This document shows positions 7,906 through 59,400 of a stretch of 64,000 nt of DNA, in pieces (positions within the stretch are counted from its first letter, which is position 1; each line of letters begins with the position of its first letter). The position numbers and the translations under genes are program-made. The stretch comes from Isurus oxyrinchus (Eukaryota): assembly GCA_026770705.1 (NCBI GenBank), contig JANJGN010000034.1, forward strand, positions 16,430,001-16,494,000. Direction: 5' to 3'. The notes under the pieces are model-generated. The model saw nothing but the letters and a program-made list of their open reading frames with translations, was not told the DNA's origin and ran no database searches.

Positions 7906-7981
7906 CCCTATCTATTTATCTACCTATCTATCTATCTGTCTGTCTATCTATCTATCCATCTGCCAACCTATCTATCTATCT
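7906..7981. repeat. (TATC)n/(TGTC)n microsatellite, left flank of the Penelope palindrome
   Basis: Direct inspection; same orientation as the right flank. Confidence 0.9.
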
Positions 7982-9515
7982 ACAAAAACAGAATTACCTG
8001 GAAAAACTCAGCAGGTCTGGCAGCATCGGCGGAGAAGAAAAGAGTTGACGTTTCGAGTCCTCATGACCCTTCGACAGAACTTGATTTCGAGTCCAAGAAA
8101 GAGTTGAAATATAAGCTGGTTTAAGGTGTGTGTGTGGGGGGGCGGAGAGAGAGTGAGAGACAGAGGTGCTTGTGTAGACAAACAAGCAGTGATAGAAGCA
8201 GATCATCAAAAGATGTCAGCGACAATGGTACAAAAGAACACATAGGTGTTAAAGTTAAAGTTGGTGATATTATCTAAACGAATGTGCGAATTAAGAATGG
8301 ATGGTAGGGCACTCAAGGTACAGCTCTAGTGGGGGTGGGGGGAGCATAAAAGATTTTAAAATATTTAAAAATAATGGAAATAGGTGGGAAAAGAAAAATC
8401 TATAAAATTTATAGGGAAAAAAAAGGGGAAAAAAAAGGGGGAAACAGAAAGGGGGTGGGGGGGAAGGGGGAGGGAGTTCACGACCTAAAGTTATTGAATT
8501 CAATATTCAGACCGGAAGGCTGTAAGGTGCCTAGTCGGAAGATGAGGTGTTGTTCCTCCAGTTTGCGTTGGGCTTCACTGGAACAATGCAGTAAGCCAAG
8601 GACAGACATGTGGGCAAGAGAGCAGGGTGGAGTGTTAAAATGGCAAGCGACAGGGAGGTTTGGGTCATTCTTGCGGACAGACCGCAGGTGTTCTGCAAAG
8701 CGGTCGCCCAGTTTACGTTTGGTCTCTCCAATGTAGAGGAGACCACATTGGGAGCAACAAATGCAGTAGACTAAGTTGGGGGAAATGCAAGTGAAATGCT
8801 GCTTCACTTGAAAGGAGTGTTTGGGCCCTTGGACGGTGAGGAGAGAGGAAGTGAAGGGGCAGGTGTTACATCTTTTGCGTGGGCATGGGGTGGTGCCATA
8901 GGAGGGGGTTGAGGAGTAGGGGGTGATGGAGGAGTGGACCAGGGTGTCCCGGAGGGAGCGATCCCTACGGAATGCCGATAAGGGGGGTGAAGGGAAGATG
9001 TGTTTGGTGGTGGCATCATGCTGGAGTTGGCGGAAATGACGGAGGATGATCCTTTGAATGCGGAGGCTGGTGGGGTGATAAGTGAGGACAAGGGGGACCC
9101 TATCATGTTTCTGGGAGGGAGGAGAAGGCGTGAGGGCGGATGCGTGGGAGATGGGCCGGACACGGTTGAGGGCCCTGTCAACGACCGTCGGTGGAAAACC
9201 TCGGTTAAGGAAGAAGGAGGACATGTCAGAGGAACCGTTTTTGAAGGTAGCATCATCGGAACAGATGCGACGAAGGCGAAGGAACTGGGAGAATGGGATG
9301 GAGTCCTTACAGGAAGCGGGGTGTGAGGAGCTGTAGTCGAGGTAGCTGTGGGAGTCGGTGGGTTTGTAATGGATATTGGTGGACAGTCTATCACCAGAGA
9401 TTGAGACAGAGAGGTCAAGGAAGGGAAGGGAAGTGTCAGAGATGGACCACGTGAAAATGATGGAGGGGTGGAGATTGGAAGCAAAATTAATAAATTTTTC
9501 CAAGTCCCGACGAGA
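7982..9515 (-). mobile_element. Penelope-like element (Neptune-type), left arm of an inverted pair; 5'-truncated
   Basis: Uninterrupted frame 8478-9503: RT C-terminus/thumb (LPFLDLSV, HYKPTD, SHP..K.SIPFSQFLRLRRICS), Cys linker CPRKRCNTC, GIY-YIG endonuclease (LVYCICCSQCGLLYIGETKRKLGDRFAEH..GLN), followed by ~500 nt of non-coding terminus. Confidence 0.92.
8043..8081 (-). ncRNA. Minimal type I hammerhead-ribozyme-like motif (variant core CUGUCGA)
   Basis: Reverse complement of the motif at 10948-10986. Confidence 0.6.
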
Positions 9516-9520
9516 AAAGT

Positions 9521-11084
9521 TTGGAAAAATTTATTAAATTTGCTTCCAATCTCCACCCCTCCATCATTTTCACGTGGTCCATCTCTGACACTTCCCTTCC
9601 CTTCCTTGACCTCTCTGTCTCAATCTCTGGTGATAGACTGTCCACCAATATCCATTACAAACCCACCGACTCCCACAGCTACCTCGACTACAGCTCCTCA
9701 CACCCCGCTTCCTGTAAGGACTCCATCCCATTCTCCCAGTTCCTTCGCCTTCGTCGCATCTGTTCCGATGATGCTACCTTCAAAAACTGTTCCTCTGACA
9801 TGTCCTCCTTCTTCCTTAACCGAGGTTTTCCACCGACGGTCGTTGACAGGGCCCTCAACCGTGTCCGGCCCATCTCCCGCGTATCCGCCCTCACGCCTTC
9901 TCCTCCCTCCCAGAAACATGATAGGGTCCCCCTTGTCCTCACTTATCACCCCACCAGCCTCCGCATTCAAAGGATCATCCTCCGCCATTTCCGCCAACTC
10001 CAGCATGATGCCACCACCAAACACATCTTCCCTTCACCCCCCTTATCGGCATTCCGTAGGGATCGCTCCCTCCGGGACACCCTGGTCCACTCCTCCATCA
10101 CCCCCTACTCCTCAACCCCCTCCTATGGCACCACCCCATGCCCACGCAAAAGATGTAACACCTGCCCCTTCACTTCCTCTCTCCTCACCGTCCAAGGGCC
10201 CAAACACTCCTTTCAAGTGAAGCAGCATTTCACTTGCATTTCCCCCAACTTAGTCTACTGCATTCGTTGCTCCCAATGTGGTCTCCTCTACATTGGAGAG
10301 ACCAAATGTAAACTGGGCGACCGCTTTGCAGAACACCTGCGGTCTGTCCGCAAGAATGACCCAAACCTCCCTGTGGCTTGCCATTTTAACACTCCACCCT
10401 GCTCTCTTGCCCACATGTCTGTCCTTGGCTTACTGCATTGTTCCAGTGAAGCCCAACGCAAACTGGAGGAACAACACCTCATCTTCCGACTAGGCACCTT
10501 ACAGCCTTCCGGTCTGAATATTGAATTCAATAACTTTAGGTCGTGAGCTCCCTCCCCCTTCTCCCCCCCCACCCCCTTTCTGTTTCCCCCTTTTTTTTCC
10601 CCTTTTTTTTCCCTATAAATTTTATAGATTTTTCTTTTCCCACCTATTTCCATTATTTTTAAATATTTTAAAATCTTTTATGCTCCCCCCACCCCCACTA
10701 GAGCTGTACCTTGAGTGCCCTACCATCCATTCTTAATTAGCACATTCGTTTAGATAATATCACCAACTTTAACTTTAACACCTATGTGTTCTTTTGTACC
10801 ATTGTCGCTGACATCTTTTGATGATCTGCTTCTATCACTGCTTGTTTGTCTACACAAGCACCTCTGTCTCTCACTCTCTCTCCACCCCCCCCCTCCCACA
10901 CACCTTAAACCAGCTTATATTTCAACTCTTTCTTGGACTCGAAATCAAGTTCTGTCGAAGGGTCATGAGGACTCGAAACGTCAACTCTTTTCTTCTCCGC
11001 CGATGCTGCCAGACCTGCTGAGTTTTTCCAGGTAATTCTGTTTTTGTTTTGGATTTCCAGCATCCGCAGTTTTCTTGGTTTTTA
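9521..11084 (+). mobile_element. Penelope-like element (Neptune-type), right arm of an inverted pair; 5'-truncated
   Basis: Uninterrupted frame 9521-10546, 341 aa, differing from the left arm at about 6 residues. Same terminus, extending ~37 nt further. Confidence 0.92.
10948..10986 (+). ncRNA. Minimal type I hammerhead-ribozyme-like motif (variant core CUGUCGA)
   Basis: AGTT-CTGTCGA-A-GGGTC atgag GACTC-GAAAC-GTC-AACT gives stem I AGTT/AACT, stem II GGGTC/GACTC, GAAA, palindromic ACGT stem III and a GUC cleavage triplet at 10980-10982. Minimal hammerheads in Penelope-like element termini are established. Confidence 0.65.
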
Positions 11085-11141
11085 TATCTATCTATCTATC
11101 TGTCTGTCTGTCTGTCTATCTATGTATCTATCTATTTGTCT
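11085..11141. repeat. (TATC)n/(TGTC)n microsatellite, right flank of the Penelope palindrome; abuts gap 11142-11292
   Basis: Direct inspection. Confidence 0.9.
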
Positions 11142-14040: not shown

Positions 14041-14654
14041 AAAATTTTCCAAATTCCCTTTTTGACAGTGACAAGGTCCCCAAACATTCCACGTAGTTGA
14101 TAAGCATCACACAGCTGCTTCTTCACACTGTTTCAAGGCTTCTCACTCCCCTGACCACCAGGATAATCACATGAAAAAAGATGTTTCAAGATTCCCTCAA
14201 TGAGGTCCATTGTATTAGTAGCATGATGATATTAGATACTACTACCATTGGCATACTTCCAGCTCTCTGATGAGTGCACGTTCTTGGTCATTATACTGAG
14301 TGTATCTTTCCTACAGGAATTATTTGCATGTATGATGTCAAACTGCTTCAGATACCAATTGGCCACAACTATTTATTCATTACCGCAACCCTAATGATTC
14401 CCACAAGGAGGAAGTCAGCAAATTCAATACAGTCCAATTTGACTTCACCCCATCATCACTTATGTACATCATCACACCGTGATAAACATAAGTAATCAGA
14501 CAAAAGTTAATCAGTTACATTGTTATTTCAGGCTCCTCAGTCCATTTAGTGGTGGCAAATAAGATCACCCTCAGCACTGAGTCAGGAAGTAGTGGGTGTA
14601 AGACTCCATCGCAAAAACTGGAGACCCATAATCCAGACCTGACCGTCGTGTCTC

Positions 14655-17600
14655 CAGTACTGAGGGAGTGACGCACAGTCGGAGGGTCAGTCCTGAGGGA
14701 GTGCTGCACGGTCAGAGGGTCAGTACTGAGGGAGTGCTGCATTGTCGGAGGGTCAGTACTAAGGGAGTGCTGCACTGTCGGAGGGTCAGCACTGAGGGAG
14801 TGCTGCACTGTCGGAGGGCCAGTACTGAGGGAGTGCTGCACTGTTGGAGGGTCAGTACTGAGGGAGTGATGCACTGTCGGAGGGTCAGTATTGAGGGAGC
14901 ACTGCACTGTTGAAGCGTCAGTACTGAGGGAGTGCTGCACTGTCAGAGGGTCAGTACTGAGGGAGCACTGCACTGTCGGAGGGTCAGTACTGAGGGAGTG
15001 CTGCACTGTCAGAGGGTCAGTACTGAGGGAGTGCTGCACTGTCGGAGGGTCAGTACTGAGGGAGTGCTGCACTGTCGGAGGGTCAGTACTGAGGGCGTGA
15101 TGCACTGTCGGAGGGTCAGTATTGAGGGAGCACTGCACTGTCGGAGGCTCAGTACTGAGGGAGTGCTGCACTGTCAGAGGTTCAGTACTGAGGGAGTGTT
15201 GTACTGTCAGAGGGTCAGTACTGAGGGAGCGCTGCACTGTCGGAGGGTCAGTACTGAGGGAGTGCTGTACTGTCGGAGGGTCAGTACTGAGGGAGGGCTG
15301 CACTGTTGAAAGGTCAGTACTGAGGGAGCCCTGCACTGTTAGAGGGTCAGTACTGAGGGAGTGCTGTACTGTCGGAGGGTCAGTACTGAGGGAGGGCTGC
15401 ACTGTTGGAACGTCAGAACTGAGGATGTGCTGCACTGTCAGAGGGTCAGTACTGAGGGAGCGCTGCACTGTCAGAGGGTCAGTACTGAGGGAGTGCTGCA
15501 CTGTCGGTGGTTCAGTACTGAGGGAGTGCTGCACTGTTAGAGGGTCAGTACTGAGGGAGCGCTGCACTGTCAGAGGGTCAGTACTGAGGGAGGGCTGCGA
15601 TGTCAGAGGGTCAGTACTGACGGAGTGCTGCACTGTCGGAGGGTCAGTACTGAGGGAGTGCTGTACTGTCGGAGGGTCAGTACTGAGGGAGGGCTGCACT
15701 GTTGAAAGGTCAGTACTGAGGGAGCCCTGCACTGTCAGAGGGTCAGTACTGAGGGAGTGCTGTACTGTCGGAGGGTCAGTACTGAGGGAGGGCTGCACTG
15801 TTGGAACGTCAGAACTGAGGATGTGCTGCACAGTCAGAGGGTCAGTACTGAGGGAGCGCTGCACTGTCAGAGGGTCAGTACTGAGGGAGTGCTGCACTGT
15901 CAGAGGGTCAGTACTGACGGAGTGCTGCACTGTCAGAGGGTCAGTACTGAGGGAGTGCTGCACTGTCGGAGGGTCAGTACTGAGGGAATGTTGCACTGTC
16001 AGAGAGTCAGTGCTGAGGGAGTGCTGCCCTGTCAGAGAGTCAGTACTGAGGGAGTGCAGCACTGTCAGAGGGTTATTACTGAGGGAGCACTGCACTGTCG
16101 GAGTGTTATTACTGAGGGAGCGCTGCACTGTCGGAGGGTTATTACTGAGGGAGCGCTGCACTGTCAGAGGGTTATTACTGAGGGAGTGCTGCATTGTCGG
16201 AGGGTTATTACTGAGGGAGCGCTGCACTGTCGGAGGGTTATTACTGAGGGAGCGCTGCACTGTTGGAGGGTTATTACTGAGGGAGTGCTGCACTGTCGGA
16301 GGGTCAGTATTGAGGGAGCACTGCACTGTTGGAGGGTCAGTACTGAGGGAGCGCTGCACGGTCGTAGGGTCAGTACTGAGGGAGTGCTGCACTGTCGTAG
16401 GGTCAGTACTGAGAGAGTGCTGCACTGTCAGAGGGTCAGTACTGAGGGAGTGTTGTACTGTCAGAGGGTCAGTACTGAGGGAGTGCTGCACTGTTGAAAG
16501 GTCAGTACTGAGGGAGCGCTGCACTGTCAGAGGGTCAGTACTGAGGGAGTGCTGTACTGTCGGAGGGTCAGTACTGAGGGAGGGCTGCACTGTTGGAACG
16601 TCAGAACTGAGGATGTGCTGCACTGTCAGAGGGTCAGTACTGAGGGAGCGCTGCACTGTCAGAGGGTCAGTACTGAGGGAGTGCTGCGCTGTCGGTGGTT
16701 CAGTACTGAGGGAGTGCTGCACTGTTAGAGGTTCAGTACTGAGGGAGTGCTGCACTGTCAGAGGGTCAGTACTGAGGGAGTGCTGCGATGTCAGAGGGTC
16801 AGTACTGAGGGAGTGCTGCACTTTCGGAGGGTCAGTATTGAGGGAGCGCTGCACTGTCAGAGGGTCAGTACTGAGGGAGTGCTGCACTGTCGTAGGGTCA
16901 GTACTGAGGGATTGCTGCACTGTCGTAGGGTCAGTATTGAGGGAGTGCTGCACTGTTGAAGCGTCAGTACTGAGGGAGTGCTGCACTGTCAGAGGGTCAG
17001 TTCTGAGGGAGCGCTGCACTGTCAGAGGGTCAGTACTGAGGGAGTGCTGCACTGTCGTAGCGGCAGTACAGAGGGAGTGCTGCACTGTCGTAGGGTCAGT
17101 CCTGAGGGAGTGCTGCACTGTTGAAGGGTCAGTACTGAGGGAGTGCTGCCCTGTCAGAGGGTCAGTACTGAGGGAGTGCTGCACTGTCGGAGGGTCAGTA
17201 CTGAGGGAGTGCTGCACTGTCGGAGAGTCAGTATTGAGGGAGTGTTGTACTGTCAGAGGCTCAGTACTGAGGGAGTGCTGTACTGTCGGAAGGTCAGTAC
17301 TGAGGGAGGGCTGCACTGTTGGAACGTCAGAACTGAGGATGTGCTGCACTGTCAGAGGGTCAGTACTGAGGGAGCGCTGCACTGTCAGAGGGTCAGTACT
17401 GAGGGAGTGTTGTACTGTCAGAGGGTCAGTACTGAGGGAGGGCTGCACTGTTGAAAGTTCAGTACTGAGGGAGCGCTGCACTGTCAGAGGGTCAGTACTG
17501 AGGGTGTGCTGTACTGTCGGAGTGTCAGTACTGAGGGAGGGCTGCACTGTTGGAACGTCAGAACTGAGGATGTGCTGCACTGTCAGAGGGTCAGTACTGA

Positions 17601-18858
17601 GGGAGCGCTGCACTGTCAGAGGGTCAGTACTGAGGGAGTGCTGCACTGTCGGTGGTTCAGTACTGAGGGAGTGCTGCATGTCAGAGGGTCAGTACTGAGG
17701 GAGTGCTGCACTGTCAGAAGGTCAGTACTGAGGGAGTGCTGCGATGTCAGAGGGTCAGTACTGACGGAATGCTGCACTGTCGGAGGGGCAGTATTGAGGG
17801 AGCACTGCACTGTCGGAGGGTCAGTACTGAGGGATTGCTGCACTGTCGTAGGGTCAGTATTGAGGGAGTGCTGCACTGTTGAAGCGTCAGTACTGAGAGA
17901 GTGCTGCACTGTCAGAGGGTCAGTACTGAGGGAGCACTGCACTGTCAGAGTGTCAGTACTGAGGGAGTGCTGCACTGTCGTAGGGTCAGTACTGAGGGAG
18001 TGCTGCACTGTCGTAGGGTCAGTACTGAGGGAGTGCTGCACTGTTGAAGGGTCAGTACTGAGGGACTGCTGCACTGTCAGAGGGTCAGTACTGAGGGATT
18101 GCTGCACTGTCGAAGGGTCAGTACTGAGGGAGTGCTGTACTGTCAGAGGGTCAGTACTGAGGGAGGGCTGCACTGTTGAAAGGTCAGTACTGAGGGAGGG
18201 CTGCACTGTCAGAGGGTCAGTACTGAGGGAGTGCTCTACTGTCGGAGGGTCAGTACTGAGTGAGGGCTGCACTGTTGGAACGTCAGAACTGAGGATGTGC
18301 TGCACAGTCAGAGGGTCAGTATTGAGGGAGCGCTGCACTGTCAGAGGGTCAGTACTGAGGGAGTGCTGCACTGTCGGTGGTTCAGTACTGAGGGAGTGCT
18401 GCACTGTCAGAGGGTCAGTACTGAGGGAGTGCTGCACTGTTGGTGGTTCAGTACTGAGGGAGTGCTGCACTGTCAGAGGCTCAGTACTGAGGGAGTGCTG
18501 CACTGTCGTAGGGTCAGTACTGAGGGAGTGCTGCACTGTCGGAGGGTCAGTATTGAGGGAGCGCTGCACTGTCGGAGGGTCTATACTGAGGGAGTGCTGC
18601 ACTGTCGTAGGGTCAGTACTGAGGGAGTGCTGCACTGTCAGACGGTCAGTACTGAGGGAGCGCTGCACTGTTAGAGGGTCAGTACTGAGGGAGTGCTACA
18701 CTGTTGTAGGGTCAGTACTGAGGGAGTGCTGCACTGTCGTAGGGTCAGTACTGAGGGAGTGCTGCACTGTTGAATCTTCAGTACTGAGGGATTGCTGCAC
18801 TGTCAGAGGATCAGTACTGAGGGAGTGCTGCACTGTCAGAGGGTCAGTACTGAGGGAG
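14655..18858 (+). repeat. 33-bp minisatellite (GTCAGTACTGAGGGAGTGCTGCACTGTCGGAGG), ~127 copies, preceded by a degenerate SINE head (14575-14655)
   Basis: 11-residue periodicity in the ORF track; recurrent variant units; the upstream flank resembles the flanks of the arrays at 30655 and 33220. Confidence 0.95.
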
Positions 18859-19544
18859 ATCTGCACACACAGAAAGCTGCTTTCTGGCATATCTGGCCTT
18901 CTCTTTGAATTTAAATTCTCATTGTATCACCAGGTCTTTTGAACTCCCAGCTCTTCGAACAATAAAACCTCTTTCCAGGCACCAATCTTATGAGTAATTT
19001 AAACATTGCTTGGTCTCTGCTAACTGTGTGCTAGATTTCACTCCCACTCTTGAATGATCTATTCAACAAAATGGAAATGTACCACGGTCCCTGTTTACAT
19101 CTCGAAACGACTACTCACCAGATCTCCCAGGTGCGCTGACCTTAATCCCACACATTAGACCTCCGTTTAAAACAAAGTAGTTCCAATAACATTACATAGC
19201 TTAAAATCTCCATCCATGATGAGTACATCAACACCAAGATCATTGCTTTGAGAGTGACTAAGTGTTCAGAATGCTGAGTCACAAGGATGGGGGAGAAACT
19301 GCTGCGACATGTCCCAAGCAGGCTTAACAGCAGCAATGAGCGGGTTGTGGTAAATGCTTAGGGGCAATTGGCAACTGGCAATAAAGGGTGACATTGCCAG
19401 TGGTGCTCACATCGCCAGACTGAATAACTAATATAATTAAAACTTCATTGCAATGGGGAGACTCCATCGGACCTGTTATCATCAACAACTGCATCCTCAA
19501 TCATTGTGACAAAATCTTGTGATTTAAATATGAAATCTAATCCA

Positions 19545-23109: not shown

Positions 23110-23500
23110 AATGGGGGATTCAGTGATGGTAATGCCATTGAACATCAAGGTTAGATTCTTTCTTGTTGGAGATGGTCATTGCCTGACACTGGTGTGGTGT
23201 GAATGTTACTTGCCACTTGTCAGCCCAAGCCTGGATATTGTCCAGGTCTTGCAGCATTTGGACATGGACTGCTTCAGTATCTGAGGAGTCGCGAATGGTG
23301 CTGAACATTGTGCAATCATCAGCGAACACCCCGGCTTTCGATCTTGTGATGGGAGGAATGTCATTGATGGAGCAGCTGAAGGTGGTTGGGCTGAGGACAC
23401 TACCCTGAGGAACTCCTGCAACAATCATTTGGGACTGAAATAATTGACCTCTGACTACTACAGCCATTTTCCTCTGTGCTAGATATGACTCCAGCCAATT
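23110..23500 (-). mobile_element. Internal RT fragment of the HER1-like LINE
   Basis: AGVPQGSVLSP..VFADDCT. Confidence 0.85.
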
Positions 23501-24180
23501 GTCCTAGAGTTCAGCTCCACCTCAATTTACCTGATAGGCAGACTTGATATCTTGAGTTGACAAAAGCCGCAATTATAAGTAAACATTCTTTTCTCTCTCT
23601 CTCTCTCTCTTTCTCTCTTTCTCCCTCTCTCTCTCTCTCTTTCTCACTACTGGTTCCTGTTTTGATCCACTACCCACACACTTGTGCAGCAGTGGCTTTG
23701 GTTCAGGAACGGGGATGCGAGTGGGCTATCCCCCTCTCCCCCCTCCCCCGTGAACGCAGAGCAGGGAGGGGGAGAGGGGAACGGGTGTGTGCCGAGGGTG
23801 GGTGGGGTTGGGGTTGGGGTTGGGGCCGGGGCAAGTATAGGTGTTAGATTTCAGCCAGCAAAGCTGCCAGAGAGCAGGGGCTGCGATGCCCTTCGAGGTC
23901 GAAAAGTTGACTGGCTTCTTCAAAATGCAAAAATCCCAAGTTTGGGAAAAAAAAACGGGAGCACTCACAGGTTTGAAGGCGCAGTATCCTAGATTAAGAG
24001 GGTGGGGAGATTGAGGATTTGGGATTTGGGATTTGCTTGGTGGGGGGGCGGGGGGGGGGGCGGGGTGGGGGGGTGGGGGGATGTTCTGGTAGGTGCAGAG
24101 TGGAAGAGTGTCACATAAAATTGAACCATGCACTGTTTGAAACGCACACTTTAATTGGAACATTTCTCTTCTCTTTCAGG

Positions 24181-24289: not shown

Positions 24290-25440
24290 AGATCAGAGCG
24301 AGGATGTTACACGGAGAGACCGGGGCAGAGAAGGTTAAGGGGGTGATTGAATCGAGGCGTTCAGAATCATGAGGGGTTTGGATGGACTCAGCAAGGAGAA
24401 ACTGTTTCCAGTAACAGGAACGCCAAAGTACACAGGTCCCTGAAGGCAGCAGTTCAAGTGTACAAGGTTGTGACCAAGGCTTATGGAATGCTCTCCTTCA
24501 ATAGCAGGGGTATTGAATATAAAAGTAGGGATGTAATGTTGGAATTGTATAAAACACTGATGGGGCCAAAACTGGAGTATTGTGTGCAGTTCTGGCCACC
24601 GCATTACAGGAAGGATGTAGTAGCTCAGGAGAGAGTGCAGAGGAGGTTTACAGGAATGTTGCCAGGGTTAGAAAAGTGTAGCTATGAGGAGAGATTGGAT
24701 AGGTTGGGGTTATTTTCCTTAGAACAAAGAAGGCTGAGAGGTGACTTGATCGAGATGTACAAAATTACGAGGGGAATAGTTAGAGTGGACAGGATAAAAT
24801 TGTTTCCCTTGGAGGAGAATTCAAGAACCAGGAGACATAGATTCAAGGTAAGTGGCAGAAGGTGTAGGGGGGACATGAGGAAGAACTTTATTACACAGAG
24901 GGTAGTGGGTGTCTGGAATTCGCTGCCCAAGTTGGTGGTAGAGGCAGAAACTCTAAACTCTTTTAAAAAGTACCTGGATCTGCACCTTGAGTGCTGTAAG
25001 CTGCTGCAGGCATTGGGCCGGGTGCAGAAAGGTGGGATTAGAAAGGACCCCTGGGTGTCCTCAGGCTGGATCATGGACAAGATGGGCCGAATGGCCTCCT
25101 TCTGTGCTGTAACTTTTCTATGTTTCTATGGTTCTATGGAGGGTCGGTAACCAGAGGGACACAGATTGAAGGGAATCAGGAAAAGACCAGAGGGGGGAGA
25201 TGAGGACAATTTTTTTTTTGACACAGCGAGTTGTTGTGATCTGGAAGGCGCTGCTGAAAGGGCGGTGGAAGCAGATCAATAGGAACTTTCAAAAGGGGGG
25301 AATCGGAGGAATAATTGAAGGGGAGAAATTTGCAGGACTGTGAGGGAAAGAGCAGAGGGGTGAGAGTTGGACTAATTGGATAGGTCTTTCAAAGAGCCGA
25401 CACAGGCATGATGGGCTGAATGGCCTCCTCCTGTGCTGTC
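24290..25440 (+). mobile_element. Nested CR1 fragments: younger CR1 3' end (about 24421-25139) inserted in an older CR1 3' fragment
   Basis: ORF 24347-25150 is a CR1 ORF2 C-terminus (LYKTLMGPKLEYCVQFWPPH..LERVQRRFT-like..WNSLP) with a (TTCTATGG)n tail at about 25116-25139; the older copy resumes at GGAGGGTCGGTAACCAGAGG. Confidence 0.88.
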
Positions 25441-27976: not shown

Positions 27977-28336
27977 TTGGTCATTGGCTTCCCTACAGGG
28001 GAAGGATCGAGGAACAGAGGGACTCAGGTTTAAGGCGATTGGCAAAAGGAGCGACAGAGACATGAGGAGAACTTTTTATCCCACGCAGTGAGTGGTTGGG
28101 ACCGGGAATGCACTGCCTGAGAGCGTGTGGGGGGTGGGGGGTTGCAGATTCAATTGAGGATTTGAAAAGGGAATTGGATCGTTGTCCGAAACATCTGCAG
28201 GGTTAAGGGAAAAGGCAGGCGGGGGTGGGGTGGGGGGGCGGGGGGGAACGGCCTCCTTCTGCGCTGTAACCATTCTTCCCATTCTCTGACTTCTCTTTTT
28301 GCTCGAGGCGTTGACCGATTTCCCTTCCTTTCGCAG

Positions 28337-28657
28337 GCCCAAAATTCAGCGTCACCGCACACTACAGCGGGGAAGTCATCCTTCCATGCAGCACAGGAGG
28401 CAGCTCTGTCGGGAGGGTTTATTGGCAAAAGGAGGGCAATAAACCGGTCTTCATGAAAGCCTATTGCACAGACGGAAGTAACTGCGACAAGATCAAGTCC
28501 AGCTATGCTGGCCGAGCACTCTTCATTGGCAATTTAACACGGGGCAACTTCTCTCTCAAACTTCAAGACATTCGCCTTGATGACGAAGGCTCCTACCACT
28601 GTGTGCTAATGAATAATCAAGAAGTCTCTCACTGTCACCATAACCTGAAAGTGATAG
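28337..28657 (+). CDS. B7-family protein, coding exon 2 (IgV domain)
   Basis: Acceptor TTTCCCTTCCTTTCGCAG|, donor G|GTAAGA, phase 1-1. GPKFSVTAHYSGEVILPC..RVYWQKE..YAGRA..GNFSLKLQDIRLDDEGSYHC..LKVI has the V-set Cys/Trp/DxGxYxC; RVYWQKE resembles CD80 RIYWQKE. Confidence 0.92.
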
Positions 28658-28714
28658 GTAAGAGAAATTTAAATTAATCCTCTGCTTCATTTTGACTGGA
28701 ACTGAAAGGGTTAA

Positions 28715-29460: not shown

Positions 29461-30180
29461 TAAAAATTACATTGCATAGAGTAGGATTGTATTCCTCCGA
29501 GTCTAGAAGATTAAGGCGTGACCTAATCGAGGGGTTTAAGATGAGGTTTCAATAGGGTCTATAGAGAGAAACTATTTCTTCTGGTGTGGTTTATGGGGGG
29601 GTGCAGGGGGAGTCCCTTAAAATTGGAGACGGGCCATTCAGGGGGTGATGTCAGGAAGCACTTCCTCATACAAAGGGGAAGAGGAAATCTGGAACTCTCT
29701 CCCCACACGCACCCCCGCAAAAGGCCATTGACTGAAAATGTCCAAACTGCGATTTTCTTTATTTTTTTTGCTGGGTAAGGGTATTAAGGAACCGAGCTGG
29801 GTAGAGGGAATTTTAAGAGGCAGACGAGCTGTGGCTTACCGAGGGCTGTATGGCCTCCTCCTCTTCCTATACCCCTCTGTCCACTGCTCAAAGGATTGAG
29901 GGTGCGGCTGCCGAGTGAGGGGGATGCAAGTTGCGACGCCCCCTGCAGTCAAATAGCCCAGCACCAATCAACGGCAAGATGCAGGGTTCAGAAAAGCTGC
30001 CAGGGCTCGGTGGTGGGGGGTGGGGAGGGTGGTGGGGTGGGGAGGGGGGCTCTAGGTTGGGGGTGGTGGGATTTGGGTTCCAAAGCTAGGAGCAGAGGTG
30101 GGGAAAAGAAAATGAGAGAGTTTTTTTTTAGCATCAGGTCTTGTCTGTGTTAATGACTCCGATTTTTATCCAACTCTCAG

Positions 30181-30459
30181 CCCAGTACCGGACACCAGAG
30201 ATAAACATCACACGGGGAGTGGACAATGTTGTCACTCTCACCTGTTCCACCAGTGGAGGTTACCCAGAGGCTGCGGTGCGATGGGTGAATGGAAGTGATA
30301 ACAGTTCCTTCCCGGAGAATCTGGTGGTGACCAGACACGTCAGGGACGAGCATCGACTGTACAGTCTGACCAGTGTCCTTCGGGTCAAAGTCAGTAATGA
30401 CCGCATCACCTGTCAAATCATCAGCAACAGAACTGAAGACATCAATAACTCGGTCTCAG
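30181..30459 (+). CDS. B7-family protein, coding exon 3 (CD80-like IgC domain)
   Basis: Acceptor ..CTCTCAG|, donor CAG|GTGAGG, phase 1-1. AQYRTPEI..VTLTCSTSGGYPEAAVRW..DEHRLYSLTSVLRV..ITCQI carries the B7/butyrophilin C-domain signature CxSxGGYPxP/A. Confidence 0.92.
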
Positions 30460-30599
30460 GTGAGGCTGCGAGAGCCAAACTCCTGTAGTAACTGTAGAGA
30501 TTCATTGCCATGTTGCTGTGTTCCGGAGGGAAGAGGGTAGATTGTCCGAAGGACCATAGTGAGCAGCAATTCCATAATCTTCAAATTCCAAAGGTTATG

Positions 30600-31866
30600 G
30601 GAAGGGCTCCCCAGCAGAGAGACCTGAACCCAGAATCCAGGCACGCAGGTCCAATACAGTACTGAGGGAGTGCTGCACTGTCAGAGGGTCAGTATTTAAG
30701 GATTGCCGTACTGTCGGATGGTCAGTACTGAGGGAGTGCTGCACTGTCGGAGGGTCAGTACCGAGGGAGTGCTGCACTGTCGGAGGGTCTGTACTGAGGG
30801 AGTGCTGCACTGTCAGAGGGTCTGTACTGAGGGGAGTGCTACACTGTCAGAGGGTCAGTACTGAGGGAGTGCTGCACTGTCGGAGGGTCAGTACTGAGGG
30901 AGTGCTGCACTGTCGGAGAGCCAGTATTTAAGGATTGCCGTACTGTCGGATGGTCAGTACTGAAGGAGTGCTGCACTGTCTGAGGGTCAGTATTTAAGGA
31001 TTGCCGTACTGTCGGATGGTCAGTACTGAGGGAGAGCTGCACTGTCGGAGGGTCAGTACTGAGAGAGTGCTGCACTGTCGGAGGGTCATTGCTAAGGGAG
31101 TGCTGCACTGCCAGAGGGTCAGTGCTGAGGGAGTGTGCACTGTCGGAGGATCAGTACAGAGGGAGTGCTGCACTGTCAGAGGGTCAGTACTGAGGGTGTG
31201 CTGCACTGCCAGAGGGTCAGTACTGAGGGAGTGCAGCACTGTCGGAGGATCAGTACTGAGGGAGTGCTGCACTGCCAGAGGGTCAGTACTGAGGGAGTAC
31301 TGCACGGTCGGAGGGTCAGGACTGAGGGAGTGCTGTACTGTCAGAGGGTCAGTGCTGAGGGAGTGCTGCACTGTCAGAGGGTCAGTACTGAGGGAGCGCT
31401 GCACTGCCGGAGGGTCAATACTGAGGGAGCACTGCACTGTCAGAGGGTCAGTACTGAGGGAGCGCTGCACTGTTAGAGGGTCAGTGCTGAGGGAATGCTG
31501 CACTGTTGGAGGGTCAGTGCTGAGGGAGCTCTGCACTGTCAGAGGGTCAGTACTGAGGGAGTGCTGCACTGTTGGAGGGTTAGTACTGAGGGAGTGCTGC
31601 ACTGCCAGAGGGTCAGTACTGAGGGAGCTCTGCACTGTTGGAGGGACAATATTTAGCATGAGATGTTAAACCAAGGCCCCTGTCTGCCCTCTCAGGTGGG
31701 TGTAAAAGATCCCATGGCCACTATTTTGAAGATGAGCGCTGTGTCCTGGGGCCAATATTTGTCTCTCAACTAAAACACTTAAAACAGATGATCTGGGTCA
31801 TTGTCACACTGCTGTTTGTGGGAGCTTGCTGTGCGCAAATTGGCTGCTGTGTTTCCCACGTTACAA
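30600..31866 (+). mobile_element. Deu-domain-type SINE with an internal 33-bp minisatellite expansion (about 30655-31645, ~30 copies)
   Basis: The array is followed by ATGAGATGTTAAACCAAGGCCCCTGTCTGCCCTCTCAGGTGGGTGTAAAAGATCCCATGGC..GCTGTTTGTGGGAGCTTGCTGTGCGCAAATTGGCTGC, which I recognise from memory as the DeuSINE/SacSINE1-type central domain; also present at 38690-39880 on the minus strand. Confidence 0.75.
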
Positions 31867-32770: not shown

Positions 32771-33219
32771 GTTGAGAGATTTGGCAAGGTTTAACAGTGA
32801 CATTATTGTTCTTGGACTTCAAAACACTATTAATATTGCCAAAAGTCCCACTGGCTTTTCAAGAATGTTTCACAATATTTGCTTTTATCCCAGTAAAAGA
32901 GAGTTTCCTACTCTCTTAGAATTGCAGACATTCACTCTGTCTATTCTGTTCCACAACCCCTGTTAAAATTGTACCTCAAGTTGATAAAAAAAATCTCTTA
33001 ACTCTCAAAACACTTCACACTTCCTTCCCTTAAATGTCACGTGCATGTGTTAACCACACCAGTTAACAGATTCAGAAGAAGTTCCTGCCTGTAATGCTTG
33101 AAGTGATGGCCACATGTTCACCCTGGGGCTGTGTGGGAAGCAGCCTACTTATTCAGCAGAACACTGTGGCTTAGTCCCACCCAAGTGTTCAGTGCAAACT
33201 TCAACACTGATCTGCCCTC

Positions 33220-33873
33220 TGCAGTGCTGAGGGAGTACTGCACTTTTGGAGGGTCACTGCTGAGGGAGTGCTGCACTGTCAGAGGGTCAGTACTGAGGGA
33301 GTGCTGCACTGTCAGAGGGTCAGTACTGAGGGAGTGTGGCACTGTCGGAGGGTCAGTACTGAGGGAGCACTGCACTGTCAGAGGGTCAGTACTGAGGGAG
33401 TGCTGCACTGTCAGAGGGTCAGAACTGAGGGAGCGCTGCACTGTCAGAGGGTCAGAACTGAGGGAGTGCTGCACTGTCGGAGGGTCAGTACTGAAGGAGT
33501 GCTGCACTGTCGGAGGATCAGTACTGAGGGAGAGCTGCACTGTCGGAGGGTCAGTACTGAGGGAGCACTGCACTGTCGGAGGGTCAGTACTGAGGGAGCG
33601 CTGCACTGTCGGAGGATCAGTACTGAGGGAGAGCTGCACTGTCGGAGGGTCAGTACTGAGGGAGCACTGCACTGTCGGAGGGTCAGTACTGAGGGAGTGC
33701 TGCACAGTCGGAGGGTCAGTACTGAGGGAGCACTGCACTGTCGGAGGGTCAGTACTGAGGGAGTGCTGCACTGTCGGAGGGTCAGTACTGAGGGAGCACT
33801 GCACTGTCGGAGGGTCAGTACTGAGGGAGTGCTGCACTGTCGGAGGGTCAGTACTGAGGGAGTGCTGCACTGT
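33220..33873 (+). repeat. 33-bp minisatellite, ~20 copies, preceded by a degenerate SINE head
   Basis: Same unit as 14655-18858. Confidence 0.95.
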
Positions 33874-34214
33874 TAGTGTCTGGAATGCGCTGCCTGAGAG
33901 TGTGGTGGAGGCAGATTCATTCGAGTCATTCAGGAGGGCATTGTATTATGACCTGTTAAGTAAGAATGTGCTAGGCTACAAGATGAAAGTGGGGGAGTGG
34001 CACTAGATAAATTCCTCTCATGAAGAGCCAGCATAGAGAAGTTGCACTGAATGGCCTTTGTGCTGTAACGATTCTGGTGACACTATGATGGCGATACTCT
34101 GGAAGGCACAGCTGCTGCAAGGGAGTGTAAGGTGTGGTGAAAGGATTCAGCTGCAGTAACAAGAGATTCTATCGGATAATGGTTGACTTTCTCTCTTCCT
34201 CATGTTTTGTTCAG

Positions 34215-38689: not shown

Positions 38690-41370
38690 ACTTCAGGACA
38701 ACACAAAGCCTTTCACAACCAATGGGCCTTTTGAAGAGGGCTCACTGTCATTTTACAGAGAAACGTGGCAGTCACTTTGCACACAGCAAGTTCCCACAAA
38801 CAGCAATGTGAGAACCACCCAGACAGAGAGTAACGCTCCCTCTACACTGTCTCCATCAAACACTCCCAGGACAGGTACAGCACAGGGTTAGATACAGAGT
38901 AAATCTCCCTCTACACTGTCTCCATCAAACACTCACAGGACAGGTACAGCATGGGGTTAGATACAGAGTAAAGCTCCCTCTACACTGTCTCCATCAAACA
39001 CTCACAGGACAGGTACAGCACGGGGTTAGATACAGAGTAACGCTCCCTCTACACTGTCTCCATCAAACAGTCCCAGGGACAGGTACAGCACAGGGTTAGA
39101 TACAGAGTAAAGCTCCCTCTACACTGTCCCCATCAAACACTCCCAGGACAGGTACAGCACGGGGTTAGATACAGAGTAAAGCTCCCACTACACTGTCCCC
39201 ATCAAACACTCCCAGGACAGGTACAGCACGGGGTTAGATACAGAGTAAAGCTCCCTCTACACTGTCTCCATCAAACACTCCCAGGACAGGTACAGCACGG
39301 GGTTAGATACAGAGGAAAGCTCCCTCTACACTGTCTCCATCAAACACTCACAGGACAGGTACAGCACGGGGTTAGATACAGAGTAACGCTCCCTCTACAC
39401 TGTCTCCATCAAACAGTCCCAGGGACAGGTACAGCACAGGGTTAGATACAGAGTAAAGCTCCCTCTACACTGTCCCCATCAAACACTCCCAGGACAGGTA
39501 CAGCACGGGGTTAGATACAGAGTAAAGCTCCCACTACACTGTCCCCATCAAACACTCCCAGGACAGGTACAGCACGGGGTTAGATACAGAGTAAAGCTCC
39601 CTCTACACTGTCTCCATCAAACACTCCCAGGACAGGTACAGCACGGGGTTAGATACAGAGGAAAGCTCCCTCTCCACCAAACACTCTCAGGACAGGTACA
39701 GCGCACTTTTTACGATGTTGGTTGAGGGATAAATATTGGCCCCAGGAAACCGGGGAGAACTCCCCCCTGCTCTTCTTCCAAATATTGGCTGTGAGATCTT
39801 TTACACACACCTGGCAGGGCAGACTGGGGCCTCGGTTTAATGTCTTATCTGAAGCATGGCACCTCCAACACTACAGCATTCCGTCAGTACTGACCCTTCA
39901 ACAGTGCGGCGCTCCCTCAGTACTGACCCTCCAACAGTGCAGCACTCCCTCAGTACTGACCCTCCAACCGTGCAGCACTCCCTCAGTACTGACACTCCAA
40001 CAGTGCAGCACTCCCTCAGTACTGACCCTCCAACAGTGCAGCACTCCCTCAGTACTGACCCTCTGACAGTGCAGCACTCCCTCAGTACTGACCCTCCAAC
40101 AATGCAGCACTCCCTCAGTACTGACCCTCCAACCGTGCAGCACTCCCTCAGTACTGACACTCCAACAGTGCAGCACTCCCTCAGTACTGACCCTCCAACA
40201 GTGCAGCACTCCCTCAGTACTGACCCTCTGACAGTGCAGCGCTCCCTCAGTACTGACCCTCCAACAGTGCAGCGCTCCCTCAGTACTGACCCTCTGACAG
40301 TGCAGCGCTCCCTCAGTACTGACACTCTGACAGTGCGGCACTCCCTCAGTACTGACCCTCCGACAGTGCAGCACTCTCTCAGTACTGACCCTCTGACAGT
40401 GCAGCACTCCCTCAGTATTGACCCTCTGACAGTGCAGCACTCCCTCAGTACAGACCCTCTGACAGTGCAGTACTCCCTCAGTACTGACCCTCCGACAGTG
40501 CAGCACTCCCTCTGTACTGACCCTCTGACAGTGCAGCACTCCCTCAGTACTGACCCTCCAACAGTGCAGTGCTCCCTCATTACTGACCCTCTGACAGTGC
40601 AGCACTCCCTCAGTACTGACCCTCCAACAGTGCAGCACTCCCTCAGTACTGACCCTCTGACAGTGCAGCGCTCCCTCAGTACTGACCCTCCAACAGTGCA
40701 GCGCTCCCTCAGTACTGACCCTCTGACAGTGCAGCGCTCCCTCAGTACTGACACTCTGACAGTGCGGCACTCCCTCAGTACTGACCCTCCGACAGTGCAG
40801 CACTCTCTCAGTACTGACCCTCTGACAGTGCAGCACTCCCTCAGTATTGACCCTCTGACAGTGCAGCACTCCCTCAGTACAGACCCTCTGACAGTGCAGT
40901 ACTCCCTCAGTACTGACCCTCCGACAGTGCAGCTCTCCCTCAGTACTGACCCTCTGACAGTGCAGCACTCCCTCAGTACTGACCCTCTGACAGTGCAGCA
41001 CTCCTTCAGTACTGACTCTCTGACAGTGCAGCACTCCCCAGTACTGACCCTCCGATAGTACAGCCCTCCCTCAGTACTGACCCTCCGACAGTGCAGCACT
41101 CCCTCTGTACTGATCCTCTGACAGTTCAGCACTCCCTCAGTACTGACCCTCCAACAGTGCAGTGCTCCCTCATTACTGACCCTCTGACAGTGCAGCACTC
41201 CCTCAGTACAGACCCTCTGACAGTGCAGCACTCCCTCTGTACTGACCCTCTGACAGTGCAGCGCTCCCTCAGCACTGACCCTCCGACAGTGCAGTGCTCC
41301 CTCAGTACTGACCATCCGACAGTGCAGCACTCCCTCAGTACTGACCCTCTGACAGTGCAGCGCTCCATCT
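38690..41370 (-). mobile_element. Deu-domain-type SINE interrupted by a 69-bp array (about 38820-39703, ~13 copies) and carrying a 33-bp array (about 39860-41370, ~45 copies)
   Basis: SINE tail 38690-38822 and body 39705-39880 are reverse-complement homologues of 31650-31866; the arrays are evident from their periodicity. Confidence 0.85.
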
Positions 41371-41779
41371 GTACTTATCAACGTGTAGAAGACACAGGAA
41401 CTAAATACGTTAAGGGACTGGGAATGACGCTCGCCAGAATACGCCTGTCATTCCAGCACCAGGCAAGATTGCAGGCAGGAAGCAAAACTTTGGAGATTGC
41501 GCAAAAGTCTTTTGACCTTTGACCAAATATTACTGTCCTGCCTGTGGCGATGCCCACTGCTGGCTGGACTGGAAAGTCCCACTGCTTGTATCTATCCCGC
41601 CCTTCACATATGCTCCATTTTTCAAACCTCGAAATCACCTGTGGATCTATATTTCTCTACAGTGCAAAATTCCATCCCCCTCAGGGATCTTGAAAATATG
41701 ACGCTTTAAACAACAGCCTGAACACTTCTGCCCCCCAGTTTAACATTTTAATTTCGGAAGTTCATAGAAACCATGAAGA

Positions 41780-56417: not shown

Positions 56418-59400
56418 TTTTTTTTATTCGTTCATGGGATGTGGGTGTCGCTGGCTGGGCCAGCGTTTATTACCCATCCCTAATTGCCCCTTGAGAAGGT
56501 GGTGGTGAGCTGCCTTCTTGAACCGCTGCAGTCCCTGTGGTGTAGGTACACCCACAGTGCTGTTAGGGATGGAGTTCCAGGATTTTGGCATAGGGACATT
56601 AGAATAAGGGAAGTAAACATGTGGCTAAAGGAGTGGTGTGGGAAAGAGGGGTTCCATTTCGTGGGGCACTGGCATCAGTATTGGAACAGGAGGGATCTGT
56701 ACCATTGGGACGGTCTCCACCTGAACTGATCTGGGACCAATGTCCTAGCGAAAAGGGTAAATAGGGTGGTCAACAGGACTTTAAACTAGAAAGTAGGGGG
56801 GAAGGGAAGGGTAACACTCCAAGAAGTATGACTAATGGGAAACAAAGCAGCAGGTTAGCGTGTGGGGGGGTGGATTCAACTTCATGGGAAATTATGAAAA
56901 AACTGAAAAGAAAGGAGAGCCCAGGAGAGGCTGTTAAAGTCTCCAGAACACAGCATAGGACAGAGTGTTTGGAAGGGGCTAGGAATCTAACTTCAAGCAC
57001 ATCAGATAAAGGGACGACAATGAGAAAGGGGACGGGAAATGCAGGACTGAAGGTGTTGTATCTGAATGTACGCATTATACAAAATAAGGTAAATGAGCTT
57101 GTGGCGCAGATTGAAATTGGCAGGTATGATGGGGTGGGCATCACGGAGACATGGCTGCAAGCGGATCAGGACTGGGAGCTAAATATCCAAGGATATACAT
57201 CGTATTGAAAAGATAGGCAGGTTGGCAGAGGGGGTGGGTTTGCTTTGTTAGTAAGAAATGAAATTGAATCGATAGCAAGAAATGACGTAGGGTCAGATGA
57301 TGTAGAATCTGGGTAGAGTTGAGGAACCGCAAAGGTAAAAAAACCATAATGGGAGTTATGTACAGGCCTCCGAACAGTAGTCAGGATGTGGGAGACAAGA
57401 TACACCCGGAGTTAGAAAAGGCGTGTAAGAAAGGCATGGTTACAGTGATCATGGGGGATTTCAATATGCAGGTAGACTGGAAAAATCAGGTTGGTAAGAA
57501 AAGGAATTTGTGGAATGTCTACGAGATGGCTTTTTGGAGCAGCTTGTGGTGGAGCCCACTAGGGAATAGGCAATTCTAGATTTAGTGATGTGTAATGAGG
57601 CAGATTTGATAAGGGAGCTTAAGGTGAAAGAGCCCTTAGGAGGAAGTGACCATAATATGATGAATTTACCTTGCAATTTGAGAGGACAAAGCTGGAATCA
57701 GATGTAACGGTATTACAGTTGAATAAAGGCAACTACAGAGGCATGAGGGAGGAGCTGGCCAGAATTGACTGGGAGATGAGCCTAGCAGGAAAGACAGTGG
57801 AACAGCAATGGCAGGAGTTTCTGGGAGACACAGCAAAAATTCATCCCTAGGAAGAAGAAGCATAGTAAAAGGAGGACAAGGCAACCATGGCTGACAAGGG
57901 AAGTCAGGGACAGCATAAAAGCTAAAGAGAAAGCATACAATGCGGTGAAGAGCAGTGGGAAACTAGGGAATTGGGAAGCCTACATAGACCAACAGAGGAT
58001 AACTAAAAAAGAAATAAGGAGGGAAAAGATTAAATATGAGGGTAAACTAGCCAGTAATATAAAAGAAGATTGCAAGAGTTTTTTTTTTTAGATACATAAA
58101 GGGTAAGAGAGAGGCAAAAGTGGACTTTGGGCTGCTGGAAAATGACGCTGGAGAAGTGGTAGTGGGGAACAAAGAAATGGCGAGGAACTGAATGGGTACT
58201 TTGTGTCAGTCTTCCTGGTGGAAGACACGAGTGACATCCCCCAAGTTCAAGTGAGTCGGGGGGGCAGAGGTGAGTATGGTGGCCATTACCAAGGAGAAGG
58301 TGCTAGGAAAACTGAAAGGTCTGAAGGTGGATAAATCACCGGAAGCAGATGGATTACACCCCAGAGTTCTGAAGGAGATAGCTGAAGAGATAGTGGAGGC
58401 ATTAGTGGTGATCTTTTAGGAATCACTGGAGTCAGGGAGGGTCCCAGAGGACTGGAAAATCGCTAATGTAACCCCTCTGTTTAAGAAGGGAGGGAGGCAA
58501 AAGACAGGAAATTACAGGCCGATTAGCCTGACCTCGGTCGTTGGTAAGATTTTAGAGTCCATTAAGGATGAGATTTCAGAATACTTGGAAGTGCGTGGTA
58601 AAAAATGGCAAAGTCAGCAATGGTTTCATCAAGGGGAAGTCATGCCTGACAAATGTGTTAGAATTCTTTGAGGTGGTAACGAGTAGGTTAGACAAAGGAG
58701 AGCCATTGGATGTTATCTACTTGAACTTCCAGAAGGCCTTTGACAAGGTGCCGCACAGGAGGCTGCTCAGTAAGATAAGAGCCCAGGTGTTAGAGGCAAG
58801 GTACTAGCATGGATAGAAGATTGGCTGTCTGGCAGGAGGCAGAGAGTGGGGATAAGGGGGTCCTTCTCAGGATGGCAGTTGGTGACGAGTGGAGTTCCGC
58901 AGGGGTCAGTGTTGGGACCACAACTTTTCACTTTATACATTAATGATCTAGATGAAGGAACCGAGGGCATCCTGGCTAAGTTTGCAGATGACACAAAGAT
59001 AGGTGGAGGGACAGGTAGTATTGAGGAGGCAGGGAGGCTGCAGGAGGATTTGGACAGGTTAGGAGAATGGGCAAAGAAGTGGCAGATGGAATACAACGTG
59101 GGGAAGTGTGAGGTCATGCACTTTGGTAGGAAGAATAGAGACATAGACTATTTTCTAAATGGGGAGAGAATTCAGAAATCTGAAGTGCAAAGGGACTTTG
59201 GAGTCCCTGTCCAAGATTCTCTTAAGATTAACTTGCAGGTTGAGTCGGTAGTTAGGAAGGCAAATGCAATGTTGGCATTTATTTTGAGAGGACTAGAATA
59301 TAAAAGCAGGGATGTGCTGCTGAGGCTTTATAAGGCTCTGGTTAGACCACATTTAGAATATTGTGAGTAATTTTGGACCCCGTATCTCAGGAAGGATGTT

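Follow-up and report, generated by a model that had tools for sequence, protein, structure and literature searches.

Structure of the palindrome and identity of the element

The window, a 64,000-nt stretch of the Isurus oxyrinchus genome, contains a long head-to-head inverted repeat with a 14-nt target-site duplication abutting both of its ends (Table 1). Global alignment of 9521-11047 with the reverse complement of 7982-9503 runs over 1527 columns, of which 13 are substitutions and 5 contain gaps (99.1% identity when gaps are left aside), and a 17-nt spacer separates the arms. When the arms are aligned to a full-length copy of the element (L017), the left arm begins at unit position 1758 and the right arm at 1770. 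The first 12 nt of the spacer continue the left arm, the last 5 nt have no match to the full-length copy, and microhomology is absent from the joint. The initial annotation had described arms of ~1.52 kb, ~99% identical and truncated at almost one point, with a 17-nt spacer of which ~12 nt is element sequence, and all of this is borne out. Its statement that several arm differences fall at CpG holds in part: set against the family, 3 CpG transitions and 2 transversions at CpG are found among the 13 substitutions, and 3 lie in a slippery C/A tract. The differences are mostly private to the window and derived alleles occur on the left and right arms alike; a simple read fold-back is therefore excluded, as had been argued. 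The palindrome had also been described as bounded by gaps. N runs are indeed present on both sides, but they are 416 and 151 nt long and lie in simple repeats, whereas the sole N run across 1.68 Mb of the other fetched loci is exactly 100 nt, so the flanking runs may be masks.

Table 1. Features of the palindrome and its insertion ends (positions in the window)
Feature	Position	Strand	Basis
Target-site duplication, left copy, 14 nt, TATCTATCTATCTA	7969..7982	+	sequence; 14-nt match
Left arm, 5'-truncated Penelope-like copy ending at the no-tail site	7983..9503	-	alignments
Hammerhead-like motif, mirror copy	about 8043-8081	-	read by eye
Left-arm open frame: C-terminal part of RT, linker, GIY-YIG; without start, without YIDD	8481..9515	-	ORF list, Pfam
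Left-arm-only element sequence, 12 nt	9504..9515	-	alignment to full-length L017
Non-element insert at head-to-head joint, AAAGT	9516..9520	.	alignment to L017
Right arm, 5'-truncated copy, part pairing with left arm	9521..11047	+	global alignment
Right-arm open frame, 341 codons + stop	9521..10546	+	ORF list, Pfam
CX4CxxC linker motif CPRKRCNTC, Neptune/Nematis type	10139..10165	+	translation; motif scan on full-length copy; PMC8557442 definition
GIY-YIG endonuclease N-terminal motif, inner CxxC	10250..10354	+	Pfam PF01541
Hammerhead-like motif in pseudo-LTR, core CUGUCGA at 10952-10958	10948..10986	+	read by eye
Tail, 37 nt, right arm only	11048..11084	+	arm alignment; one-tail rule 79/81
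Target-site duplication, right copy, 14 nt	11085..11098	+	sequence; 14-nt match

Each arm carries a stop-free frame of 341 codons, as first described (ORFs 8478-9530 on the minus strand and 9494-10546 on the plus strand). Judged by position on the full-length copy, both frames start ~10-15 codons past the YIDD motif of the reverse transcriptase (RT), so neither arm encodes a working RT. The PF01541 match on the window arms (E 8e-4, 20.1 bits) is under the 22.6 cut-off. The full-length copy has a 918-aa ORF that matches PF00078 (E 7e-8) and PF01541 (E 8e-4), which is the EN+ layout of a single ORF with RT and then a C-terminal GIY-YIG domain. The CCHH endonuclease motif is present in the translations, at motif level, as CIRCSQC and HLRSV...CHF. 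The top homologues carry PF00078, and many also carry PF01541; among the named homologues, that of Chiloscyllium punctatum is closest (68%), and none of the 120 homologues listed is a Neptune or Nematis reference by name. Units of ~3,323 nt stand in tandem at L014, L017, L021, L148, L163 and L169, where they form pseudo-LTR-forming partial tandems. On these features, the element is an endonuclease-bearing Penelope-like element with a linker of the Neptune/Nematis type. The Penelope-type identity first proposed is supported by RT and GIY-YIG on the full-length copy, the tandems and the tail, and the Neptune-type label by the linker motif, which Nematis shares, so that the element may also belong to Nematis.

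The core of the hammerhead-like motif is present in 179/195 printed segments, and the motif recurs in a family of thousands of young copies. The canonical hammerhead core is CUGAUGA, and the motif may be a variant or dead ribozyme; there is no hammerhead family among the 20 Rfam matches. These consist of 17 microRNA-precursor matches and 3 weak others, all under the gathering score, and the microRNA-precursor matches were dismissed since any long hairpin would give them.

The initial annotation placed an immune gene ~13 kb away. A B7/butyrophilin-like gene does lie downstream, with an Ig V-set exon (28315-28674, plus strand) and a CD80-like C2-set exon (30132-30485, plus strand), but the V-set exon, the nearest with a Pfam match, is 17 kb from the palindrome; no leader exon was located near 24 kb. 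For a host gene running across the palindrome, no convincing Pfam match came from 63 frames to the left or from those tested at 11.3-23 kb; the scan took in frames of at least 55 aa free of low complexity and stopped short of the 130 frames past 46 kb. The cruciform and the dsRNA hairpin suggested in the initial annotation are hypothetical, and a spacer of 17 nt with a mismatch 18 bp from it should hinder cruciform extrusion. The insertion product is predicted to be inert, with no catalytic RT motif and no promoter shown to read through it. Elsewhere in the window, 33-nt minisatellite arrays occur in both orientations at about 14500-18900, 31000-31670, 33100-33950 and 39850-41400. They carry open frames of up to 1057 codons, and those near 15-18 kb are inverted relative to those near 40-41 kb, at about 89%. 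A LINE-type RT-like fragment was found by Pfam at 23123-23503, and others were seen by eye at 24347-25150, 58774-59370 and 60566-61432.

Head-to-head insertions in the family

A 109-nt pattern in which 31 bases are specified was matched 9,112 times in the 4.98 Gb of genome searched, and the first 100 of these include 14 head-to-head pairs and 2 tail-to-tail neighbours. In total, 197 loci were fetched: 38 best matches to the right arm, 99 from a pattern with 818 matches and 60 from the 109-nt pattern. The 818-match pattern covered a minor allele and thus gives no copy number, and its loci (L049-L147) are biased around that site. A head-to-head joint within the anchored insertion was found in 21/38 right-arm-like loci, in 40/96 loci of the 818-match pattern (3 unmapped) and in 24/51 loci of the 109-nt pattern, the last figure running low as it omits 9 loci picked as pairs. 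The head-to-head arrangement is the commonest complex product of the family and makes up about half of the sampled copies. The palindrome is therefore not special in the way that the initial annotation presented it. Some insertions are very young, with arm differences of 4/2630 (L118), 1/1417 (L185), 0/1836 (L191) and 5/3089 (L194), the last a palindrome of ~6.2 kb whose arms are nearly full length. Activity of the family may be continuing in this genome.

The ends of these insertions follow two rules. Among 95 complete head-to-head insertions, 14 have an eroded end, and 79 of the 81 classifiable ones have one tail end and one no-tail end (the other 2 are without a tail). Target duplications of 12-17 nt, of which a few bases may be microhomology, are present in 40/42 young insertions, window included. 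The window insertion follows both rules, its 37-nt tail being on the right arm only and TATCTATCTATCTA adjoining both ends, and the single tail with the abutting 14-nt duplication bears out the earlier proposal of one integration event. The length of the target duplication is ambiguous by multiples of 4 because the left copy sits in a TATC microsatellite. This microsatellite target is incidental, as 0/193 other ends lie in the simple repeats tested versus 2/2 in the window; microsatellite targeting by the family was dropped as an idea. By inspection, the targets are mostly AT-rich.

Pairs with nearly equal arms form a class that exceeds chance, and the window is one of many such pairs. Among 74 joints with both arms >=300 nt, 10 have an offset of <=40 nt versus 2.3 on permuting partners (P 1e-4), as do 8/35 among arms >=1.2 kb. 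Further palindromes of about 2.9 to 6.3 kb are found at L016, L018, L036, L117, L118, L185 and L194. Near-symmetric pairs account for 2-4 of the 14 head-to-head pairs in the first 100 of the 9,112 matches, from which a few hundred near-symmetric palindromes are estimated genome-wide by extrapolation. In near-symmetric pairs (n=21), the no-tail arm is longer in 11, the tail arm in 8, and the two are equal in 2; in the window, the no-tail arm is longer by 12 nt. In asymmetric simple pairs (offset >100 nt, n=40), the arm that extends further 5' is the no-tail one in 24 cases and the tail one in 16.

Short head-to-head palindromes without an ORF, with arms of 100-250 nt, are also found (L013, L029, L064, L075, L084, L085, L112, L114, L115, L129, L142, L146, L150 and L168). 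The offset is <=25 nt in 16/21 short pairs, and many of them have their turning point close to unit positions 3180 and 3209, perhaps an RNA 5' end or cleavage point. At L189, a ~1 kb internal piece of the element (positions 28-1046) lies at the joint between arms that start at 1176 and 1186, and internal pieces also lie at the joints of L107, L127, L138 and L156. This suggests template jumps during joining.

Templates and origin of the two arms

Whether two arms copied one template is reflected in their minor alleles, for which polymorphisms were defined on an independent sample with ascertained sites and both biased regions removed. Near-symmetric pairs (offset <=70 nt; 11 pairs, the window among them) share 44 minor alleles and are discordant at 3, versus <=1.4 discordant expected by new mutation (P 0.17), and asymmetric pairs (n=24) have 69 shared and 26 discordant versus 4.9 expected. 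Tandem neighbours have 36 shared and 8 discordant, and random pairs share 14% of minor alleles. The contrast between symmetric and asymmetric pairs has P 0.004 per site and is not significant per pair (P 0.15). By their alleles, near-symmetric arms are consistent with one template. Both window arms have a variant with 46 exact matches genome-wide and a subfamily haplotype with 180 matches, of which 40 in the first 100 form 20 head-to-head pairs. The arm difference at 8649/10375 (C/G), which was left out of the non-CpG test, is a family polymorphism with G in 8/57 loci, so the window arms may not come from one molecule throughout. A broader two-template reading, from arms differing at supposed family polymorphisms, was withdrawn as an ascertainment artefact: L011-L048 are enriched for right-arm private alleles because they were chosen as best right-arm matches, and these alleles are found in 0 of 50-56 independent loci and in 0 of the first 100 pattern matches. 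One right-arm private allele has 69 copies genome-wide. At L183, the head-to-head arms belong to different subfamilies (9 discordant and 0 shared minor alleles), either from two RNA templates in one event or through later conversion.

The window palindrome arose in one event, with a common source for both arms, one tail and a staggered duplication. The origin that we consider moderately probable is a single insertion in which a staggered cut left two ends that each primed reverse transcription, with the same RNA as template. The GIY-YIG endonuclease would cut both target strands about 14 nt apart, and one target end would prime at the end of the RNA tail while the other primes 37 nt further in. 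Both cDNAs would stop nearly together, most simply at the 5' end of one broken RNA, and the near-symmetry follows if they share this RNA end. Second-strand synthesis would come next, the inner ends would be joined with a 12-nt offset and 5 added nt, and the arms would then diverge by mutation. Separate priming of the second arm is what we infer here. Two target-primed cDNAs from two RNA sites fit better than the alternatives in that they would cover all pair classes with one mechanism, and by analogy two-site priming would agree with in vitro work on Poseidon, another clade.

The initial annotation proposed a single fold-back. Plain fold-back is insufficient because each arm has element sequence that is absent from the other (12 nt inside and 37 nt outside), and the 5 extra nt and the lack of microhomology at the joint also disfavor it. 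Where the no-tail arm is the longer of the two, as in the window, it cannot have been copied as DNA from the tail arm, nor can the no-tail arm have served as template for the tail. Long palindromes undergo central deletion, and since a few joints sit on native inverted repeats, fold-back with processing of the tip is a serious rival. Here the tail-primed cDNA would fold at its 3' end and copy itself, the second arm would be cut or stopped 37 nt short, and the tip would be opened and trimmed to the 17-nt spacer. The excess of near-symmetric pairs, the fit of their arms to one template, the almost spacerless joints of the little-diverged L118 and L185 and the symmetric joint of L113 on a native inverted repeat (7-nt overlap) all speak for this reading, and self-priming has been proposed in the available text of PMC3846280. 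Against it, two extra events are needed in the window (the tip deletion and an exact stop at the no-tail site), and fold-back cannot yield the 24/40 asymmetric pairs in which a much longer no-tail arm follows the same tail rule. Gap and overlap sizes are also alike at symmetric and asymmetric joints. Fold-back with tip processing is thus considered unlikely, and priming of both arms on one RNA remains preferred.

It is decidedly improbable that the two primings used different RNAs, or repeat units of one source array, with close stops by chance or at a shared pause. The mixed templates of asymmetric pairs, the 9 discordant alleles of L183 and the one polymorphic site at which the window arms differ are in keeping with this, as is the finding that, for either arm, 1-3 of the sampled copies are slightly closer to it than the opposite arm is (in a sample picked by right-arm likeness), but the 12-nt offset is unaccounted for, symmetric pairs are without excess discordance, and long symmetric joints are scattered from 653 to 2539 with no single pause. 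An assembly artefact, by mis-joined paralogues or haplotypes or by a fold-back read, would accord with the flanking N runs and with the finding that none of the listed contig pieces from 7 public runs (unknown individuals; 31-60-nt pieces in the element family) crosses the joint, but it is very improbable given that the single tail, the opposite end without one and the abutting duplication recur in dozens of insertions in unique DNA, that derived alleles lie on both arms and that the rare variant is common to both.

Known systems and significance

The preferred reading resembles L1 twin priming in that one RNA is primed from both target strands and the resulting cDNAs are joined, but L1 yields non-overlapping inverted pieces with one 3' end, whereas both primers here start at the 3' end and the sequence is therefore duplicated head to head.

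The back-to-back layout is already published, and the window is a further case of it. In the available texts, PMC8557442 describes a 5'-truncated copy in inverted orientation and a tail of 30-40 bp that is often confined to one end; it also defines the CX2-5CxxC linker of Neptune and Nematis. Head-to-head is the most frequent inverted arrangement of Adineta Pen2/Pen2a/Pen3a, with palindromes at the joint (PMC3846280), and minimal hammerheads occur in pseudo-LTRs, with some pairs on opposite strands (PMC4209133). The Poseidon-clade protein, a predicted dimer, cuts and extends both strands, and its RT starts at two sites bracketing the tail (PMC11167929). The available parts of PMC12602865 and 10.64898/2026.07.22.740005 add nothing on inversions. 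No shark-specific account or symmetric-pair counts were found in a mainly non-subscription literature; these may stand in the supplements of PMC8557442 or PMC11167929.

As far as those texts go, the shark family resembles EN+ Penelope-like elements, including those of Adineta, in RT followed by GIY-YIG, partial tandems, an inverted 5'-truncated copy, a one-end tail, target duplication, the head-to-head form as the commonest inverted one and palindromic joints. It differs in that both window arms are 1.5 kb and almost equal, unlike the published inverted copies described there, and in target duplications of about 14 nt versus 8-10 in Adineta; counts for the one-tail rule and near-symmetric pairs are given here and are absent from the available descriptions. 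The likeness to PAc (Poseidon, Anolis carolinensis, in vitro) lies in two 3' end positions bracketing the tail, element 3' ends on both target ends and mostly AT-rich targets, but PAc belongs to another clade, and the long ORF of the shark family begins after the tail rather than within the hammerhead. Neptune, as described, shares the C-terminal endonuclease, the CX2-5CxxC linker, CCHH-type cysteines and histidines and a unit of about 3.3 kb, but its reported tendency toward microsatellites is not seen at the other ends of this family.

The locus itself is of little weight, since long head-to-head pairs are estimated to number 1,300 (extrapolated from the 14 in the first 100 of 9,112 matches). 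An effect on the B7/butyrophilin-like neighbour would be of greater consequence, but the present data give no sign of it. The family-level counts are modestly useful to specialists: they connect the two RT start sites seen in vitro with a one-tail rule that is nearly absolute in vivo, and they set a symmetric class copied from one template apart from an asymmetric class with mixed templates. It is conceivable, though we lean slightly against it, that near-symmetric palindromes are a distinct class in which an RT dimer, its two halves primed from the two target ends at the two start sites, copies a single broken RNA as far as the 5' end, and that lopsided pairs often use different templates. 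If true, palindromes of >=2.4 kb would be tolerated in this genome in numbers of a few hundred, with one RNA end preserved in each, and the late steps of Penelope integration would be readable from assemblies alone.
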